From the IMG/VR virus record IMGVR_UViG_3300032167_000103, positions 51,473 to 71,472 of that record: DNA of 20,000 bases; one strand, 5' to 3'. This DNA is from an uncultured virus (IMG/VR IMGVR_UViG_3300032167_000103) (lineage: Duplodnaviria > Heunggongvirae > Uroviricota > Caudoviricetes). The notes under the pieces are model-generated. The model was given only the letters and a program-made list of their open reading frames with translations. It was not told where the DNA came from and did not search any database. Positions 2,275 through 17,586 of this stretch are shown here, in pieces; the stretch's first letter is position 1; each line of letters starts with the position of its first letter. The translations under genes were made by a program, and so were the position numbers.

Positions 2275-2727
2275 TTAAATTTCATCTACTGTTTTTGATA
2301 GTAGATCTTTAATGGTATCCATTGTTATACGAATAATATATGATTCGTAAAACTCTTTAGTGAATAGTGTGTCATCAAATATGATTCTATCAGCATTAAT
2401 ACTGTCATGTACTTCATTACTGATATCTGCCACTAAAGTTCTGATATTTTCTTTCGTTGTCATTTCAACTTTATGATTGTCAATGAAATCTCTGAAATGC
2501 AAGAAAGTTACTTGGGTTGTAAACATACGAACATATTTCAATATATCTTCAGAATATTGAGTGTTCTTTCGTTCACTATCTTTCTTTAATTTTGCATTTA
2601 GTTCTTGTAATTCTTCTTCTCTCTTTTTTAATATGAGATAGTTTCGGAGCACACATAAAAATGCTCCGAAACTAATCAACATTGATACAGAGAGAATAGG
2701 AATAATGATTTTATAAATTTCTTCCAT
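2275..2727 (-). CDS. Hypothetical membrane-anchored protein (150 aa)
   Basis: GAGGT RBS; N-terminal hydrophobic helix IIIPILSVSMLISFGAFLCVL followed by a charged coiled-coil-like stretch. Confidence 0.8.
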   Translation of the reverse strand: MEEIYKIIIPILSVSMLISFGAFLCVLRNYLILKKREEELQELNAKLKKDSERKNTQYSEDILKYVRMFTTQVTFLHFRDFIDNHKVEMTTKENIRTLVADISNEVHDSINADRIIFDDTLFTKEFYESYIIRITMDTIKDLLSKTVDEI

Positions 2728-2744
2728 ATCATTTACCTCTCTTT

Positions 2745-3255
2745 TTATTTGCTGATAGCGAAATCTTCCAAATGAGTCTTAAACAAGTTGATTATATTAT
2801 CAGTGAGATATTTCTTCTTGAATGGAAGATTTTCTACTACATAGTCCCAAACTTCGTCAACATCATCAATATCTCCAGGATTCTCTTTAAGATATCTTCT
2901 GTATATTTTACCAAGTTTCTTGAGATGATACATTTCATTAGATGTGCAGAAGATTGTACTATTACCTACTACAAATCCTACACTATCTTCATCGTGTTCT
3001 GCCTCACCGATATATTCATCTTCATCGATGATTGTTTCCATACGTACTCCTAATGATTTCAGATATACCTGAAGAACTTCTACAGATCGTTGAGTAAAAT
3101 TATCCGGAATATTATAATGACCATCTTCTGATAATATAGCTTCATACATATAACGTCTTCCATCAATTGAAGATCTGTATAGTGCACTAACTAATGCGAA
3201 GTCTTGAGGATCTGTAATTACAAGGAAATTAGGCGTTTCGTACTCCCCAAATCTA
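2745..3255 (-). CDS. rpoB: Phage RNA polymerase beta subunit (C-terminal half), exon 3
   Basis: Begins (I)RFGEYE, matching the beta RFGEME motif, and contains SVEVLQVYLKSLGV, matching the beta C-terminal SFxVLxKELxSLGL. It joins exon 2 inside the Ile codon AT^T. Confidence 0.88.
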
Positions 3256-3475
3256 CAAGGGATTTTCTTAACTTTCAATTTCGTGAATAGATTAGACTAT
3301 ATCTTCAAATAATATCTATTACCAATATTATTTGCCCTCCATTTCCATATTGCACTATTTATCATTCCACTATAAATAGACTAATGAATTCATTAGCTGT
3401 ACTCTACTGACTGTATTAGTATCGTATTTCTCGAATACTACAGTTGGTCGATAGTCGTTGAACTTTATACTGTGT

Positions 3476-4324
3476 TTATTGACGTTTAACTGGTATACTA
3501 TATAAACAACTAATATGTTTCCATGATCTTTTAGTATTAATATCATAAATTAACGTTTTAGGAACATTCATAATCTCAGATATTTCCATTATTTTCACAT
3601 TTGGATTTTCTAACATTTTACAAATATTATGAATTTTATCTTCTGAATATTCATTTCTAAAATTTATCGAAGGAATATTATATTCAGAAGAAATATGTGT
3701 CCATGTTTCACCTTTTCTAATATGATAAATAATTATAGATGAAACACCTGTTAATTCTGATATTAAAGCTGGATTACTATTAGTATTTTCTAACATTTCA
3801 CATACTAATCTAATTTGTTCTTCAGTATACACATTTTCTGGATGTTTAATACCTTTAATGTCTAAAAGACCAGTATCTACTGCATGTTGCATATTTTCTT
3901 GAATTGTGACCCATTCTAAGTTCCCAACCCAATTACATGTTTTAATACCATTCTTGTGATTTACAAATGGTTTATTCTCTGGATTTGGAATAAATGCTTC
4001 AGCTACTAACCTATGTATGGAACGTTTATATGGTTTTTCTTTTAGACCATAAATATTTATCATCAGATATCCAGCATTTGTAACAGCACCTTGAATAGTT
4101 TGATTTTTAACATTTATCACAACGCCTGTATTACTAATCTTATATCCTGAATCTTTACCATCAATAATCACTGGTTTCCATACAGGATTATTCAGATCAT
4201 GAATGTATTGATTTAACAATTGTATTTCTGCAATTTGTAATTCATAATCATTCTTGTTAAATAGATATTGAGAATGTTTATTTCTTTCTTCTTGTAATAA
4301 TTTATCTAATTTAGATAGTTTCAT
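3476..4324 (-). CDS. Intron-encoded HNH homing endonuclease (NUMOD4/I-HmuI-like, about 282 aa)
   Basis: WKPV..YKISNTG.V N-terminal motif; HRLVAEAFIPNPENKPFVNHKNGIKTCNWVGNLEWVT HNH core; two C-terminal ~55-aa HTH-like repeats. The start is placed at ATG 4324 (AGGAGG RBS) rather than 4372. The ORF is flanked by the P6a stem AUACUGUGU/ACACAGUAU. Confidence 0.92.
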   Translation of the reverse strand: MKLSKLDKLLQEERNKHSQYLFNKNDYELQIAEIQLLNQYIHDLNNPVWKPVIIDGKDSGYKISNTGVVINVKNQTIQGAVTNAGYLMINIYGLKEKPYKRSIHRLVAEAFIPNPENKPFVNHKNGIKTCNWVGNLEWVTIQENMQHAVDTGLLDIKGIKHPENVYTEEQIRLVCEMLENTNSNPALISELTGVSSIIIYHIRKGETWTHISSEYNIPSINFRNEYSEDKIHNICKMLENPNVKIMEISEIMNVPKTLIYDINTKRSWKHISCLYSIPVKRQ

Positions 4325-4346
4325 ATTGATTACCTCCTTTCTATAT

Positions 4347-4355
4347 AGAATATAT
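4347..4355 (-). promoter_or_regulatory. Putative early promoter motif ATATATTCT inside the intron, upstream of the HNH ORF
   Basis: Identical 9-mer to those upstream of the beta gene and the DHH operon; a second variant GTATATTAT lies at 4372-4380. Confidence 0.5.
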
Positions 4356-4543
4356 GATTTGATTTTAGTCAATAATATACACAGTATTTTAGCTGCGGAT
4401 TATCCAATCTTATAACGTTTTTACCATCCCTAACCCATTACAGTTAGTACTAACACTGTCCATTACTGGCAGCTGTGGTAGTTATAAGCTCTAAGGAACT
4501 TCCCGCAATTAAAAGGGTTTAAAGCCAACTAGATTTGTAGTTA

Positions 4544-5250
4544 ATCGGCTTTGTTGATTTCCAATCTCTACCAGTTTTATTCGAGTTACTCTTCTCAGGT
4601 AGAGATTCATCACCAATGGCTCCAGAAGATCTAACAGAGAAACCTTTCTCACCGGACTGTTTAAGCATCATGATATATTGATATCCAACATAATCGTCAC
4701 CAATCCAAATATCCCTTCCCCACTTTGGTTTAGGAGCAAAGATATGATAAGGTTTAATAATATCACCATACTTTTCATATATCTCTAAGATAGAATCTCG
4801 TAATGACCATTCTTCATTGAAAGGTTCCCATCTTGAATATAATCCATTATTGGTGATAAGTAATCCATTTCTATCTACAGAGATACAGTCTTGAATGAAA
4901 TGTTTCTTTTGATAATCTGATAAACCATCATAAATATCTTCTAAATCTTTAGTCTGTTTAGGATTTAAGATTCGTAATATATCGAACATAAATTCTTTTT
5001 GTTCTTCTATAGTATCTAAAGTTGCTGCATGTTTTCTAGCACGATCTAGAATAAATGTAACTGATCCTTCATACATAACCATTGGAATAGTACGATTGAT
5101 AATAGCCAATGGATTAGTTATTAAATCTACTCGTTCTCGTACTCCTTTAGCATGTTTTACACCATATTGATCAGTTGTCATTTCTGTAGTTAAATATGGC
5201 ATTTCTTCATCTGGCCATATACTACATGTCACAGTCTTGTTTCCATGCCT
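4544..5250 (-). CDS. rpoB: Phage RNA polymerase beta subunit (C-terminal half), exon 2
   Basis: RHGNKTV...EMPY...DLITNPLAIINRT...VGYQYIMMLKQ...SVRSSG matches the beta motifs GRHGNKG, DMP, DxxxNPLGxxSRM, VGxxYxxKLxH and ARSxG. Confidence 0.92.
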
Positions 5251-5678
5251 CGGTTTCTTACACATTGATTCGCAACATCAATGCAGCAACTTAATGCTTC
5301 TTATGCTTTCACATAACGACAGTAGAATTTCACTACTGAAGGATCTTTCGATCGTCGAGATCATATCTTTCATAGTAATTATACTATGACCGGCATTTCG
5401 ATTTAAGGGATTCTCACCCACCTCTTAGACCTTATTCAGTCCTGCTTAGGCCCTACTCCTATTGATAATATTAATTTATTAATATTATCCAAGGGATGAT
5501 CGTTGAACTCATATCCTGTTTAGGATACTTCGCTGCGTCGGTTGTCCCTATTTCTAACATTTTTACTATACCTTTGGAATTACCCATTGCCCCATAGTAT
5601 ATCACTATCTATGGTTAGTAGTTAGAACTTAACAGGAGTTTCCCGCAATTAGCACGATTTTACGTCGGCATGCATTTT
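5251..5678 (-). mobile_element. ORF-less group I intron (428 nt) in the RNAP beta gene
   Basis: P1 pairs GUCGGU^ with GCCGAC (U-G at the splice site). Core elements: P AAUUGCGGGAAA (5639-5650), R GUUCAACGAUCA (5497-5508), S AAGAUAUGAUC (5359-5369). Terminal G is at 5251. Splicing gives GGT^AGG CAT GGA AAC AAG = GRHGNK. Confidence 0.93.
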
Positions 5679-6821
5679 ACCGACTATTTTGCGGCCGACT
5701 TTGACGGTTTCTTTACTTCTAATCAGAATCTCTACCATAATATTTGAAAATACAGAATCATTGAAAGCCCATTGAGCATCTGTATCCAAATAGTTCATAG
5801 CTTTACGTTTCCATCTATTGATTTCCTTGTCGATATTTTTGGAACCGCTTTTCAGAATTTTCTTACATACTTTATACACATCAGTGTAGAACCATCTTGC
5901 ATCATTGTAATACTGAATAAGTTGTTTTGTAACCTTATTGGTTTTGATATTAGGATTATTGCAGTATACATTGATATCGATAATTTCAGAATCTTTAGGA
6001 CAGTAATATTTAGCATCTGATTGATTGATATGATGTAAAGAAATATCTCTCATGTCAGAAAACATTCTACTTTCTTTAATCTGACGAGTAGCTGCTAAAA
6101 TACCATCACTGATAATATCACCTATATTCGGAAGACCTTGATATTCTCCTTCTTTACCATAGAGATTCAGAAGAATAGTATTTTCACTAATAGGTATGGT
6201 CTTTGATGTTACATTATTTGCTACCATTCTTTTTGCAAAAGATTCTGATAGAATAATGGCATCATCCTGTACAGCTGGATGTGCACCATATAGAATTCGA
6301 CCATTTACACCAATTGAAGTATTTCCGTATTCATCATAAGATGTAGTTGAATATAACATTGTACCTTCAGGAATAATTTCACCAACTTCTGCAGCATCAA
6401 GAAAATCATTCTTGTAATCGAAACCAAAATTCTCAGTAAGATTTTCTACTTGATTTCTCTCTACTACTGTATACGAGTCATCCTGCCTGCAATATAAGAA
6501 GTATAAAGCAACGTTACATTTACCTTTTAGAAGGTTTTCATATTTCTTACAGATTGCATATACTTCATATTCCTTATCTGCTCTTTTATAGAATGAAGAA
6601 TGTTCACCGGTAATATTTTCTTTACCATCATACAGGAATGGAAACTCTGGATTATCTAATGTAAGATGTTGCGTATGATGTTTAATGTTCATCGTACTAC
6701 GCATTACATTGTTACCTCCATAGAAATCACCTTGACCTGTTAATGCTAATTTCTTTTTCCCTTTGAGCTCTTCATTTTTTCGTTGCAGTTCTTGGATGAG
6801 GTTATACTTTTCTCTAACCAT
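5679..6821 (-). CDS. rpoB: Phage RNA polymerase beta subunit (C-terminal half), exon 1; spliced product 786 aa from 6821-5679, 5250-4544 and 3255-2745
   Basis: NNVMRSTMNIKHHTQHLTL..PEFPFLYDGKE resembles the beta RALMGSNMQRQAVPL..GTGME region, QDDAIILSE resembles EDxIxxSE, and the exon ends KVGRKIVG. RBS AAGGAGG. Exon lengths 1143+707+511 = 2361 nt = 787 codons. Confidence 0.9.
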
Positions 6822-6904
6822 TTTATATCCTCCTTTTCTGTGTTGAGTGTTAATAAATTAAGACGGTGAGTGAATTAAACATTGTTGTCTTAATTGTTAA
6901 GGGC

Positions 6905-6913
6905 AGAATATAT
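6905..6913 (-). promoter_or_regulatory. Putative early promoter motif ATATATTCT for the RNAP-beta operon
   Basis: Lies between the tail tube terminator and the beta start codon; recurrent motif. Confidence 0.55.
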
Positions 6914-6936
6914 AAATATTTATTTGGACAAAAAAT

Positions 6937-6972
6937 GATACAATCCAGAGGGAATTCCCTCTGGATTGTATC
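6937..6972 (-). terminator. Intrinsic terminator, 36-bp perfect palindrome after the tail tube gene
   Basis: GATACAATCCAGAGGGAA-TTCCCTCTGGATTGTATC followed by ATTTTTT on the minus strand. Confidence 0.82.
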
Positions 6973-12904: not shown

Positions 12905-13332
12905 CGTTATATTCACACAGTTCGCAACACTGTGCAGTTCTCTAAACTCAATTCATTATATTCATATGAATTGAAAATGAACTTCCCTATCTCTCGATAG
13001 GATACTTGACTATATCTCCATCCACATACAATATTTTATGTGGAGCAATCCATTTCCATTTAAGGGATTTTCACCCACCACCATTGGCAATTGTGGTCGT
13101 ACTCCTATTGCCGACTTTCACGGCTTATTTCAGGATAGTCGATGAACTTTACTCTGAATAAGATCAGAGTCTTAGCTGCGGATTGTCTGTACCATGTACC
13201 TTTTTACTATACCTTCCACATTACTGGTTGCCACTATGATATCACTACCATAGTTTAGTAGTACACGTTTAACCAGAGTTTCCCGAACAATTAAGATTGG
13301 AAAACTATATGTTACCATATAGCCACCCCGTT

Positions 13333-14385
13333 TTATACTATAATTTCTTTAATTTCATTTTCATTGAGAAGAATACTTTCGTTTTCTTTTATGGCTTTCA
13401 TTTTATTTATTTTTAGTATTCGTTTATTGATAGATCGTCGTAATAAACTATCTTCTTTAGTTCCATCATTTTTATACCAAAATATTTGTAAATTTCGTTT
13501 CTTGGTATATTAGATGAAATCATTCTAGATAACACATTTTCATCAATATTTCGTACAGTATGAGCTCTTTTTTCTGGTTTAAAATATTCTTTGCTAATCT
13601 GAGACCAAATATTTCCACTTTTAATATTACGAATAACATTCTTGTATCGTAATTCTTCCTTAGGATCATTTATAACAATTTTATTCAGTCCCAATATATC
13701 ATAAATTTCATCAGTAGTTTTACCATCTACATGAAGTTTACATATCTGATGAATTTGATCTAAAGAAAATTTACTATTTTTATCTTTTGGAAGATATTCT
13801 TTTTCAGAATTAGATGAAGTTTCATACTCATATTGTGATACTACGTCTATCCAAATCTTTTTATGTCTAAGCCTATGAATAAGTGTATACATTGACATAT
13901 CTTCTTTAGAATTATAATCAATTCGTACTTTATTCATTACTTTACGAAAAACTTCCATATTATTCATTCCATTTACAAACATTTTGCATATATCATGAAT
14001 TAAAGTTTCTGGATAGATATTCGTAGATGAATTTTCTCCACGTGTATTATATAAACCAGTAGCATGAGCTCTACGAGTATTTTCTGCAGATGTTACCCAT
14101 TCTAGATTTGTATAATGATTATTTTGTTTATTACCATCAATATGATCAATTTGTAAACGAATATCTCTATTTTTTTAAACAAAATTCATATGCGACTATT
14201 CTATGAACTCCATAATTGTTTTTACTAAGAGCGATCCTTAGATATCCATCTGAATCAACGTGAGATGATACAAATCGTTCGAATAAAGTATCATAGACTT
14301 TGCCATATTCTGATATGAAATATCTATTTTGATCTACTCCTGGATATGTAACTTTTCTGTATTCTTCTCTTTTAGTATTTTTCAT
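13333..14385 (-). pseudogene. Frameshifted intron HNH endonuclease gene
   Basis: ORF 14385-14167 (RYFISEYG.V, DGYLRI, VHRIVA) stops after an A7 run. The +1 frame continues LQIDHIDGNKQNNHYTNLEWVT into ORF 13413-13982. A probable second shift near the A5 run at 13469-13473 extends the frame to TAA at 13333. Confidence 0.85.
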
Positions 14386-14425
14386 ATTTTATATCTCCTT
14401 TAACATAGTATTTTCAGTTAATACC

Positions 14426-14434
14426 ATGATATAT
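14426..14434 (-). promoter_or_regulatory. Variant early promoter motif ATATATCAT upstream of the terL-intron HNH gene
   Basis: One mismatch from ATATATTAT, about 40 nt upstream of the ATG, which has an AAGGAG RBS. Confidence 0.4.
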
Positions 14435-14469
14435 GAAAAATACATTTAAAATCATAGCAATTTTACTTG

Positions 14470-15338: not shown

Positions 15339-15347
15339 ATATATTCT
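15339..15347 (+). promoter_or_regulatory. Putative early promoter motif ATATATTCT for the DHH-deaminase-FolD operon
   Basis: Recurrent 9-mer in the divergent intergenic region, about 50 nt before the ATG. Confidence 0.55.
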
Positions 15348-15395: not shown

Positions 15396-16397
15396 ATGAA
15401 AATGTACAAAAAAGTTTTATTTACACATGATGATATGGATGGAGCCGGTTGCCGTATCGTATTTGAATTAGCACATAGACATCTTGAAAAAGGAAAGGAT
15501 TATGAGATATTCAACTGTTCAAACAATGGAGTTGATGAAACAGCTTTATCTATTTTCAGAAATGAACAGTTTGATCCTGTGAACACACATGTTATCTTTG
15601 CTGATATATGTTGTTCTGTGCAAGCACTTGAAGTCTTCAAATCTAAAGAAGTTAAAGTTGATATCTTTGACCATCATAGAACTAACTTCCCTGTTCAGCA
15701 GGTATATCCTGATGCACAAATTGTTCCTGAAAATGTATTGGGAGTACAGGAAAGTGGAACATCTCTCCTTTATCAGTATTTCTACAATATTGATGATTTT
15801 ACTGGAGAGCATTTCAAGAATCTTGATGAAGTAATGTTTTCAAAGTTGGTAGACACTATCCGTTCATATGATACATATGAATGGAAGACTACCAATAATA
15901 TTCTGGCAAAGGAACTGCAGACATTATTCTATCTCCTTGGGATGGATAAGTTCTGTGAGCGGTATATAAAGAAGATTAGTGATGTTGAAAACAAAGATAA
16001 CCATTTGATTTCACTAACAGACATGGACTTTGTATCTACGAAAATTGAGAATGAACAAAAGGTAATTGACAACTTTACACCTGATGATGTATTTGAATTT
16101 ATGCTTCGTGGATATAACATTGCATTCATTCTCACAACAAAGGGTGCATCTATTAGTGAACTCGGTTATCAGTTCTTGACTAAGTATCCTCAGTATGATG
16201 CAATGATCTATTTCTCTCCTTATAACGGAGGAAAGTTTGAAATGAGAACCGTGAGGGACGATATTGATATGGGTGCGATGTTTGCAATGCCTATCGGTGG
16301 TGGTGGTCATCCTAAAGCTGCAGGTGCACCATTACCTCAGTCTTCTCAGGATATGATGGTTGACATGCTGATTGACGTACTGAATGGGAGGTTCTGA
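15396..16397 (+). CDS. DHH/DHHA1 phosphoesterase (NrnB-like oligoribonuclease)
   Basis: Motifs THDDMDG, FADI, FDHH, SYDTYEW and C-terminal GGGGHPKAAG. Confidence 0.9.
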   Translation: MKMYKKVLFTHDDMDGAGCRIVFELAHRHLEKGKDYEIFNCSNNGVDETALSIFRNEQFDPVNTHVIFADICCSVQALEVFKSKEVKVDIFDHHRTNFPVQQVYPDAQIVPENVLGVQESGTSLLYQYFYNIDDFTGEHFKNLDEVMFSKLVDTIRSYDTYEWKTTNNILAKELQTLFYLLGMDKFCERYIKKISDVENKDNHLISLTDMDFVSTKIENEQKVIDNFTPDDVFEFMLRGYNIAFILTTKGASISELGYQFLTKYPQYDAMIYFSPYNGGKFEMRTVRDDIDMGAMFAMPIGGGGHPKAAGAPLPQSSQDMMVDMLIDVLNGRF

Positions 16398-16403
16398 TCT
16401 CAA

Positions 16404-16814
16404 TTGAACTATAGAGACTTGAGATACATTAAAACAGCCGCGAAAATTGCCGAGCATAGCACATATGCTCGGCATTCTATCGGTTGTGTAGTAGTCTATA
16501 GAAACACCATAATTTCAACTGGGTGCAATAAGGATCGTACCGATCCATTGCAGAAAAAATATAATAAAGAGAGGAATATTTCTGATAATTATCCTCACAA
16601 GATACATGCAGAAGTAGATGCTATTAAACATATAATTGATCTTGATATTGATTGGAAGAATGTTTCTATCTATATAGTTAGATTAAGAAAAGATCAACCT
16701 TATGGAATGGCTCGACCTTGTAAATCTTGTATGTCTTTAATAAAGGACCTTGGTATCAGAAATATTTATTACACGACAAATGATGGTATCGCACATGAAA
16801 GATTGGAGGATTAA
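16404..16814 (+). CDS. Zinc-dependent cytidine/dCMP deaminase-family protein
   Basis: IGCVVV...STGCN, HAE and PCKSC zinc-binding motifs. TTG start after GGGAGG; exact start uncertain. Confidence 0.88.
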   Translation: MNYRDLRYIKTAAKIAEHSTYARHSIGCVVVYRNTIISTGCNKDRTDPLQKKYNKERNISDNYPHKIHAEVDAIKHIIDLDIDWKNVSIYIVRLRKDQPYGMARPCKSCMSLIKDLGIRNIYYTTNDGIAHERLED

Positions 16815-16815
16815 T

Positions 16816-17586
16816 ATGATACAAATTAACAATGAATTGGTAAAGACATTATCATACTATTATGATGTAGCAACAATATATCTTATGAATAAATATAATA
16901 TTAATACAATTCAGATTCATGTATTTCCAGAAGCTAGGGGACATTTTTTCAATGCTATTAAAAAGAAAGGAAAAAGTATTGGATTAGATATTGAATTTAC
17001 TAAAATCCATGATCCAAATATTCCATTTTTGTTTGATAATTTTCCAGATTATATTGATGAAGAAGATCGTGAGTTAGAAGATTTAATGGATATATTTAAA
17101 AAAGATACAAGTGCAATATACAACATCGATGTTCGTAAAGAATATAAAACAAAACAATCAGGTATCTTAAACGCAACATCTCAAGGATGTTTTGAGTTAA
17201 TTAGAAAATGGAAAACAGAAAGGTTTGATAATACAGGAATTAATATCGGAATTATTGGGAGAGGAACATCTGTTGGTTATATGGATCTTGCCCATAGACT
17301 AGTGGAAAATAATGATACTCTTGTATTATGTCATTCTCATACATTAGATACAATTCAAATGGTTAGTAAATGTGATATAATTGTATCATGTCTTGATGAT
17401 GGTGATATATATCCTTTAGAAATGTTTAAAGATAAAAGTGTTATTGATATAGGATATGCATATAAAGATGCAATTCATATTGGTACCCTTACAACATCTA
17501 TTTTGGTATATAGAGCATTATCGAGTATAACTGATAAAAGATGGATTAAAGATTCTATCATGCCTTTTAAAAAGAGATACGAATAA
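16816..17586 (+). CDS. folD: Divergent FolD-like protein (methylene-THF dehydrogenase/cyclohydrolase family, 256 aa)
   Basis: NATSQGCFELI, IGIIGRGTSVG, TLVLCHSHT, CDIIVS, VIDIG and IGTLT match FolD PCTPxG, VVIGRSxxVG, TVTxCHSxT, ADIxV, VIDVG and VGPMT. The start is placed at ATG 16816 (GGAGGA RBS). Confidence 0.72.
   Translation: MIQINNELVKTLSYYYDVATIYLMNKYNINTIQIHVFPEARGHFFNAIKKKGKSIGLDIEFTKIHDPNIPFLFDNFPDYIDEEDRELEDLMDIFKKDTSAIYNIDVRKEYKTKQSGILNATSQGCFELIRKWKTERFDNTGINIGIIGRGTSVGYMDLAHRLVENNDTLVLCHSHTLDTIQMVSKCDIIVSCLDDGDIYPLEMFKDKSVIDIGYAYKDAIHIGTLTTSILVYRALSSITDKRWIKDSIMPFKKRYE

Follow-up and report, generated by a model that had tools for sequence, protein, structure and literature searches.

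We analysed a 20,000-nucleotide (nt) stretch of DNA, hereafter the window, which covers positions 51,473 to 71,472 of the IMG/VR virus record IMGVR_UViG_3300032167_000103 and forms the last 20 kilobases (kb) of a virus contig of 71,472 nt. Its genes include those for the tail sheath and tube and for a split large terminase, together with the pieces of an RNA polymerase (RNAP) beta-like gene, all parts of which lie on the minus strand. Because complete relatives have genomes of 246-292 kb, the source is a jumbo phage. The polymerase gene, which is interrupted by two group I introns, is our subject here, and its locus contains the following features:

5679..6821, minus strand: exon 1 (1143 nt; amino acids (aa) 1-381), matching phrog_3295 (expectation value (E) 3e-55) and the PDB chains 7s00_C (E 5e-43) and 7ogp_C (E 9e-15).

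5251..5678, minus strand: intron 1, group I (428 nt), with no open reading frame (ORF); internal guide sequence (IGS) at 5669-5664 and terminal G at 5251. The 5' strand of P4 lies near 5647 and the P7 strands near 5501-5497 and 5363-5359; these inner coordinates, with that of the IGS, were counted by hand.

4544..5250, minus strand: exon 2 (707 nt; aa 382-617), with RHGNK as its first residues, matching residues 369-568 of 7s00_C.

3256..4543, minus strand: intron 2, group I (1288 nt); P10 strand at 4537-4530, IGS at 4529-4522 and terminal G at 3256. Its core has a 5' part at about 4521-4376 and a 3' part at about 3471-3278, with P6a (4386-4379 with 3475-3468) around an ORF; all inner coordinates were likewise counted by hand.

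3476..4324, minus strand: predicted HNH homing endonuclease gene (282 aa) in P6a of intron 2, matching phrog_59 (E 1e-50) and HNH_3 (E 4e-9).

2745..3255, minus strand: exon 3 (511 nt; aa 617-786 and the stop codon), beginning within PIRFGEYE and sharing 59-70% identity with the corresponding region in relatives.

In the output of gene callers the locus appears as three fragments, and an essential subunit goes unnoticed until the introns are taken out; dozens of relatives are affected in the same way. The original prediction, made from the window's letters and a list of its ORFs, had joined the three ORFs into one 786-aa frame by removing 5251-5678 and 3256-4543. Excising these two inserts leaves 2361 nt, which encode 786 aa and a stop with 0 internal stops. 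The joins restore both motifs that had been expected, GRHGNK at intron 1 (phase 0, after G381) and PIRFGEYE at intron 2 (phase 2, inside I617). At each junction the same protein results from three registers, but in only one of them does the exon end in U and the intron in G.

Comparison with known proteins places the pieces end to end. On the AR9 chain 7s00_C, the exon 1 match ends at residue 368 and the exon 2 match begins at residue 369, a residue-exact fit that argues against chance as the source of continuity at junction 1. The pieces cover PHROG 3295 at positions 25-398 and 400-606; searched by itself, exon 3 has no worthwhile match in Pfam, PHROG or the PDB. Identity between the joined protein and AR9 g089 is 27.5% over 694 columns, and the protein aligns colinearly with 7s00_C, 7ogp_C and g089; comparison with the phiKZ gp71-73 and AR9 subunits was a check that the original prediction had suggested. 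A search for longer homologues gave 148 matches, and our comparison covers the 120 that were listed. Exon 1 is 51-79% identical in 76 of these, and the alignment spans both junctions in 119, so that the colinearity with intron-free homologues on which the original prediction had staked itself is seen almost throughout. The best uninterrupted relatives are 73-75% identical over 782-787 columns with 1-5 gap columns, and the 13 residues flanking junction 1 are unchanged in 33 of 119 listed homologues.

The introns fall within the most conserved parts of the protein. A profile built from 25 homologues has 7s00_C and 7ogp_C (PHIKZ071) as its top matches, followed by cellular RpoB, and bacterial RpoB aligns with it at the GRHGNK and RFGE motifs. 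The two lysines of GxKxxGRHGNK, K378 and K386, are invariant in all 25 aligned homologues, and we take them to be the counterparts of the RNA-contacting lysines of cellular beta. Intron 1 lies after G381, between these lysines, and intron 2 inside I617, directly before RFGE. Both insertion sites are in the top tenth of conservation (percentiles 0.91 and 0.95 among 76 close relatives). Together, the invariant lysines, the RFGE motif and the RpoB alignment bear out the claim that the introns interrupt catalytic-core motifs. Lysines of this kind are mentioned in a passage of PMC7598289.

The strong copy of this gene occurs once per genome in three complete relatives, and the second beta-like genes of those relatives match weakly (E about 1e-9 to 1e-17, versus 0 to 1e-154 for the orthologue). 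In database records, AR9 g089 is annotated 'non-virion RNAP subunit, beta C-terminus', and Staphylococcus orthologues are annotated likewise. On homology, then, the gene product is identified as the C-terminal half of beta in the non-virion enzyme of a jumbo phage of the AR9/phiKZ type. The original prediction had reached the non-virion assignment through an early-type motif upstream of the gene; the assignment stands by homology to AR9 and phiKZ, and the motif, which offers moderate evidence, is not its basis.

Several features support the identification of both inserts as group I introns with exact boundaries. P1 hairpins of 7 and 11 pairs cross the two 5' splice sites, with the last exon base a U in a U-G pair, and the terminal G falls at 5251 and 3256 in the sole U/G register, as had been claimed for both junctions. 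P7, including the guanosine-binding G-C pair, has 5 of 5 pairs in both introns, and that of intron 1 shows two compensatory swaps, common to some relatives. P10 of intron 2 makes 8 consecutive pairs with the first bases of exon 3; pairing of these bases just past P7 of intron 2 was considered as an alternative and dropped, since P10 gives the 8 pairs. The core helices of intron 2 were assigned from matches to a hidden Markov model (HMM) and a covariance model (CM) and from the fold.

The core is also conserved as a structure. Over nine relatives, 95.3% of 169 cells in P3, P4, P6 and P7 are paired, a level reached in 0 of 500 shuffles, and 10 of the 19 pairs have changed on both sides; with intron 1 added to the core alignment, 96.2% of 182 cells are paired. 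Intron 1 folds better than all 100 of its shuffles (z -4.8). The HMM was built from the introns of nine relatives and the CM from the 3' cores of 22, with the window sequence in neither. Run on the 71-kb contig, the HMM matches four stretches: intron 1 (E 2.5e-41), the two halves of intron 2 (1e-19 and 2e-7) and an intron in the terminase gene. The CM, which covers the 3' half of the core and gives rough E-values, matches exactly three places in the window, namely intron 1 (E 9e-19), intron 2 (E 9e-12) and the terminase intron.

Group IA2 introns have two extra helices (P7.1 and P7.2) between P7 and P3. In both introns of the polymerase gene, about 90-110 nt of paired sequence lies between P7 and P3; we call the introns group IA-like, with IA2 as a candidate subgroup.

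The original prediction described both introns but left unmentioned the 282-aa HNH gene (4324-3476) within the second. Its product matches HNH_3 above the cut-off and NUMOD4 just under it, with a NUMOD4-like N-terminal part and helical C-terminal repeats. It also matches 1u3e_M (E 4e-11), from a PDB entry that is presumably I-HmuI, and the catalytic His and Asn columns are retained. The single-sequence fold of the protein was poor, with a predicted local distance difference test score of 50, and we made no use of the model. Around the insertion site, the intron-less alleles of the five closest loci differ at 15-22 of 60 bases. In a diverged relative assembled from run X1 (window 4249-4331 and 5252-5354), the introns are kept, the start of the HNH gene is replaced and the 3' peripheral stems of intron 1 shrink from 101 to 64 letters. 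At another relative's locus (L016, about 6330-6700), the P6a loop of the first intron appears by eye to hold a short reverse-oriented insert with a promoter-like motif and a ribosome-binding site, and no HNH gene.

Expression signals were found both upstream of the gene and inside intron 2:

6937..6972, minus strand: intrinsic-terminator-like hairpin of 16 pairs followed by a U-rich tail, closing the upstream tail sheath/tube operon.

6905..6912, minus strand: putative AT-rich early-type promoter core of 8 bases, AR9-early-like, 91 nt before the start codon.

4347..4354, minus strand: second putative early-type core, inside intron 2 and directly before the HNH ribosome-binding site; a further copy starts at 4379.

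Both the AR9 early consensus and an early promoter inside an intron, for g190, are described in the sections of PMC5312081 that deal with them. The early motif occurs in 14 of 54 upstream regions, against a shuffled mean of 3.5 (maximum 9). It occurs in 9 of 54 reverse complements too, so the motif upstream of the polymerase gene is consistent with the non-virion assignment as moderate evidence. Matches to sigma-70-type promoters were rarer than in shuffles (22 versus 30.6).

The gene identity, exon boundaries, intron anatomy, HNH gene and patchy distribution described in this report are read directly from the sequence. Their best explanation, to which we give a probability of about 0.93, is that a non-virion beta C-half gene is interrupted by two group IA-like self-splicing introns. 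The virion polymerase would transcribe the gene early, from the motif at 6912. Each intron would dock the exon end in P1 at the U-G pair, free guanosine bound in P7 would cut the 5' site, and P10 would align exon ligation at the terminal G; following established group I chemistry, two such guanosine-initiated events should yield the mRNA. Both would be needed because intron 1 separates K378 from K386, intron 2 lies in the RFGE motif, and read-through of either intron meets a stop within about 10 codons. The HNH protein would be expressed from a separate promoter located in the P6a loop. Reasoning from phiPA3 gp210 (in the account given in PMC11620839), we think it most likely that during co-infection this protein nicks alleles lacking the intron close to the PIRFGE codons, with intron 2 being copied in (homing). 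Intron 1, with no nuclease, may persist vertically or through co-conversion.

A number of points weigh against this explanation. Splicing in this phage is something that we infer, and the original prediction, which we follow on the need for two splicing events, overstated the splicing itself. In the available text of PMC10914365, long reads revealed no sign that the phiKZ gp72 intron is spliced in the conditions tested. The HNH gene looks intact, yet its product is a predicted nuclease with a putative activity and target. The paired fraction of the core exceeds that of slid controls (30-42%), a comparison in which the counted structure is favoured because it was drawn from one aligned sequence. 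Intron 1 is irregular, with a bulged P3 and a 2-nt insertion in P4; by eye, 5 of the 6 possible pairs of its P10 form when the usual register is used, and the best computed duplex overlaps the IGS. An Rfam scan of the whole window gave no group I match, and RF00028 run against intron 1 alone gave 23.1 bits (E 9e-4), below the gathering threshold of 50. The large P5 and P7.1/7.2 insertions would explain this low score. Thus the suggested check with general group I covariance models failed at the Rfam thresholds, and the CM built from relatives finds both introns. Apart from these points, we searched the contigs of run X1 (share 0.43) and found no joint at either splice junction; the run holds the diverged intron-bearing relative and gives no evidence on intron-less alleles.

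One alternative is that splicing occurs only with help, from the HNH protein as a maturase or from translation-coupled folding, or that there is an additional, regulated exon-skipped product. To judge from reference titles, T4 introns need translation of the pre-mRNA and exon skipping has been reported for Twort introns; in the window, the tail of intron 2 after P7 is short and P3 and P4 of intron 1 are irregular, as noted above. However, each intron carries its own IGS and a complete core, and nothing in this analysis gave evidence of a maturase role for HNH proteins of this type. A product that skips exon 2, which is 707 nt long, would lose the reading frame. We consider this alternative improbable.

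It is very unlikely that the inserts are dead relics and that the subunit is made as two or three individual chains that come together, so that an already split polymerase would be divided once more. Natural splits do occur in jumbo-phage RNAP genes, and section 5 of PMC7598289 records a proposal that intron mobility is the origin of the splits. ORF callers find an open frame with a start codon for both the second and the third piece, and the missing spliced reads at phiKZ gp72 point the same way. However, the starts of pieces 2 and 3 fall in intron sequence, and the first break would separate two invariant lysines, K378 and K386, that are eight residues apart. The phiKZ chain 7ogp_C in the PDB runs continuously through its intron site. 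As for relics, both cores are intact with compensatory changes in P7, P4 and P3, the boundaries are base-exact, and P1 and P10 are retained.

The gene directly follows the tail sheath and tube genes and shares their strand, a position that might suggest a subunit of the virion polymerase instead. Yet the 16-pair terminator and the early-type motif stand between the gene and the tail genes, all strong named matches are non-virion beta C-halves, and complete relatives have a different, weakly matching beta-like gene, which makes a virion role extremely unlikely. An assembly artefact or chimera, conceivable for a metagenomic virus contig, is scarcely credible, because the same layout is found in the IMG/VR records L004 and L005 (possibly not independent), a diverged X1 contig spans exon 3, intron 2, exon 2 and part of intron 1, and the L013 locus has introns at the same two sites in a gene whose protein is 70% identical.

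Interruptions of this type have already been published for the same gene, in phiKZ and in Staphylococcus jumbo phages, and a specialist would not be surprised by an intron-split RNAP gene; the added point is the scale in an uncultured clade. In GenBank, the non-viral RNAP beta C-terminal genes of Machias (CPT_Machias_266) and MarsHill (CPT_MarsHill_248) are annotated with 6 and 4 exons, and the accessible portion of Korn et al. (bioRxiv 10.1101/2020.12.14.422802) describes intron-split RNAP genes with variable exon number. The Machias and MarsHill genes are orthologous to the window gene and have introns in the same two motifs, one Machias intron carrying a homing endonuclease gene. In contrast to the introns described here, theirs are AT-rich and compact. 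Machias has its sites farther downstream, by 9 nt for intron 1 and by 6 nt for intron 2, and the proteins are about 29% identical to the window protein. The phiKZ gp71-gp72-gp73 locus is also an orthologous non-virion beta C-half, with a group I intron and an HNH gene in the motif equivalent to GRHGNK. However, phiKZ has a single intron, which is located 12 nt downstream from intron 1 and in which the ORF precedes the core (by eye); the phiKZ HNH gene is in the motif-1 intron, whereas the motif-1 intron of the window is ORF-less and the HNH gene lies in the second.

AR9 g089 (7s00 chain C) and Yersinia phage phiR1-37 g261 are the same subunit, colinear over about 690 residues, but are uninterrupted and about 120 aa shorter. 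AR9 shares a similar early promoter motif and has an early promoter for the intron-encoded g190. The consulted portion of Birkholz et al. 2024 (PMC11620839) describes phiPA3 gp210, encoded within a group I intron of a jumbo-phage RNAP beta gene, as an HNH nickase that cleaves alleles lacking the intron. That RNAP gene belongs to the virion enzyme and the intron sits in another motif, whereas the activity of the window ORF is predicted only. The two exact sites were not found in six named phages (AR9, phiR1-37, Machias, MarsHill, LY01 and phiKZ). A literature search that covered few subscription journals returned no paper on phiKZ gp71/gp73 introns or on jumbo-phage polymerase micro-exons. According to the relevant parts of the reviews PMC7598289 and PMC12908238, introns at conserved residues of essential genes are expected, and the locus confirms that the codons of the catalytic core in jumbo-phage RNA polymerases are targets of group I introns.

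Shorter homologues (209-667 aa) reveal how widespread such breaks are. We found 163, and the counts given here come from the 120 listed. The breaks of 108 fall at five sites inside the two motifs: 33 after KIVG (the intron 1 site, a count that includes the window's own protein), 24 after GRxG, 19 after PI (the intron 2 site), 16 after RFG(E) and 16 after GEYETP; 12 are elsewhere or unplaced. Because these positions are deduced from protein ends, some may be contig ends. Many of the protein tails are translated group I P3/P4 region, and the breaks held wherever the DNA of relatives was compared. Introns occupy both exact sites in L013 and the first of them in L018; L007, L008, L009, L015 and L032 have the gene without introns; and L027 and L031 have, by eye, the same sites plus stacked introns.

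The breaks are scattered over the tree. One cluster at 90% identity contains both a 787-aa intact form and a 620+172-aa split form. On a tree of 189 exon-1 sequences, the 33 carriers of a break at the intron 1 site require 25 changes, compared with a mean of 30.9 and a minimum of 25 in 300 shuffles, which suggests little vertical signal. Scatter of this kind is as repeated homing and loss would give. The neighbouring site requires 22 changes against 22.9, a figure blurred because carriers at the intron 1 site mask it. Matches to the intron model number 5, 11, 12 and 1 in the genomes G001 to G004, respectively, so that intron load varies widely across the clade.

The more surprising material lies in the relatives, with their five close sites, micro-exons and a class with an apparent A-ending 5' exon. 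At least five sites lie within about 10 and about 25 nt in the two motifs, and the introns are sometimes stacked around micro-exons. By eye, stacked group I introns with micro-exons of about 6-25 nt occupy the same two motifs in L027 (1450-4520), L018 (7100-8400) and L031 (1600-3140), with four introns in the polymerase gene of L027. In L014 (6850-8430), the insert at the intron 2 site has seemingly one and a half cores, the second beginning after the first P7 strand; its 3' junction does not cleanly restore the frame, and it may be a nested intron, a recombined one or a misassembly.

A further class of introns, with a site 10 nt downstream from that of intron 1, occurs in L010 (about 3626-4004), L016 (about 6150-6917) and L027 (about 2625-3000). 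In this class the 5' exon appears to end in A, because the invariant Asn and the terminal G require an A opposite the guide G. The residue after the GRxG break is T, N, I or S in 24 of 24 proteins; codons for T, N and I start with A and that of the single S may, in agreement with the DNA of L010, L016 and L027. We offer one joint reading of these patterns tentatively, and think it rather less than an even bet: the two motifs could be a contested intron arena clade-wide, the ORF-less intron 1 could be kept as a shield from the endonucleases of relatives and not as a passenger, and the downstream class could splice with A, not U, facing the guide G at the 5' splice site, contrary to the usual group I rule. 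The shield idea arises because an intron at one site would break the recognition sequence of nucleases that target its neighbour. Among the relatives, alleles with and without introns at the five close sites form a natural panel suited to the study of homing, co-infection interference and splice-site rules.

Elsewhere in the window, just downstream of the polymerase gene, a 150-aa membrane-protein-like gene contains a long imperfect hairpin (2614-2699), which came up as a sub-threshold miRNA-family match on both strands. A small operon on the plus strand (15396-17586) encodes a DHH phosphoesterase, a cytidine/dCMP deaminase-like protein and a FolD-like dehydrogenase, with an early-type motif ahead of it at 15340.

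The large terminase gene (15276-11561, minus strand) is likewise split by a group I intron, the core of which was matched by both the HMM and the CM. The best U/G register places this intron at 12905-14469 (1565 nt) and gives a protein of 717 aa in which CTP is joined to GNLDTREG. A likely guide sequence near 13327 would put the nuclease ORF of this intron in the P1 loop. That HNH gene (14385-13413, minus strand) has a frameshift in a run of A near 14170. The stretch has equal length in all three matching IMG/VR records, so the gene is probably decaying and the frameshift is probably not a read error.

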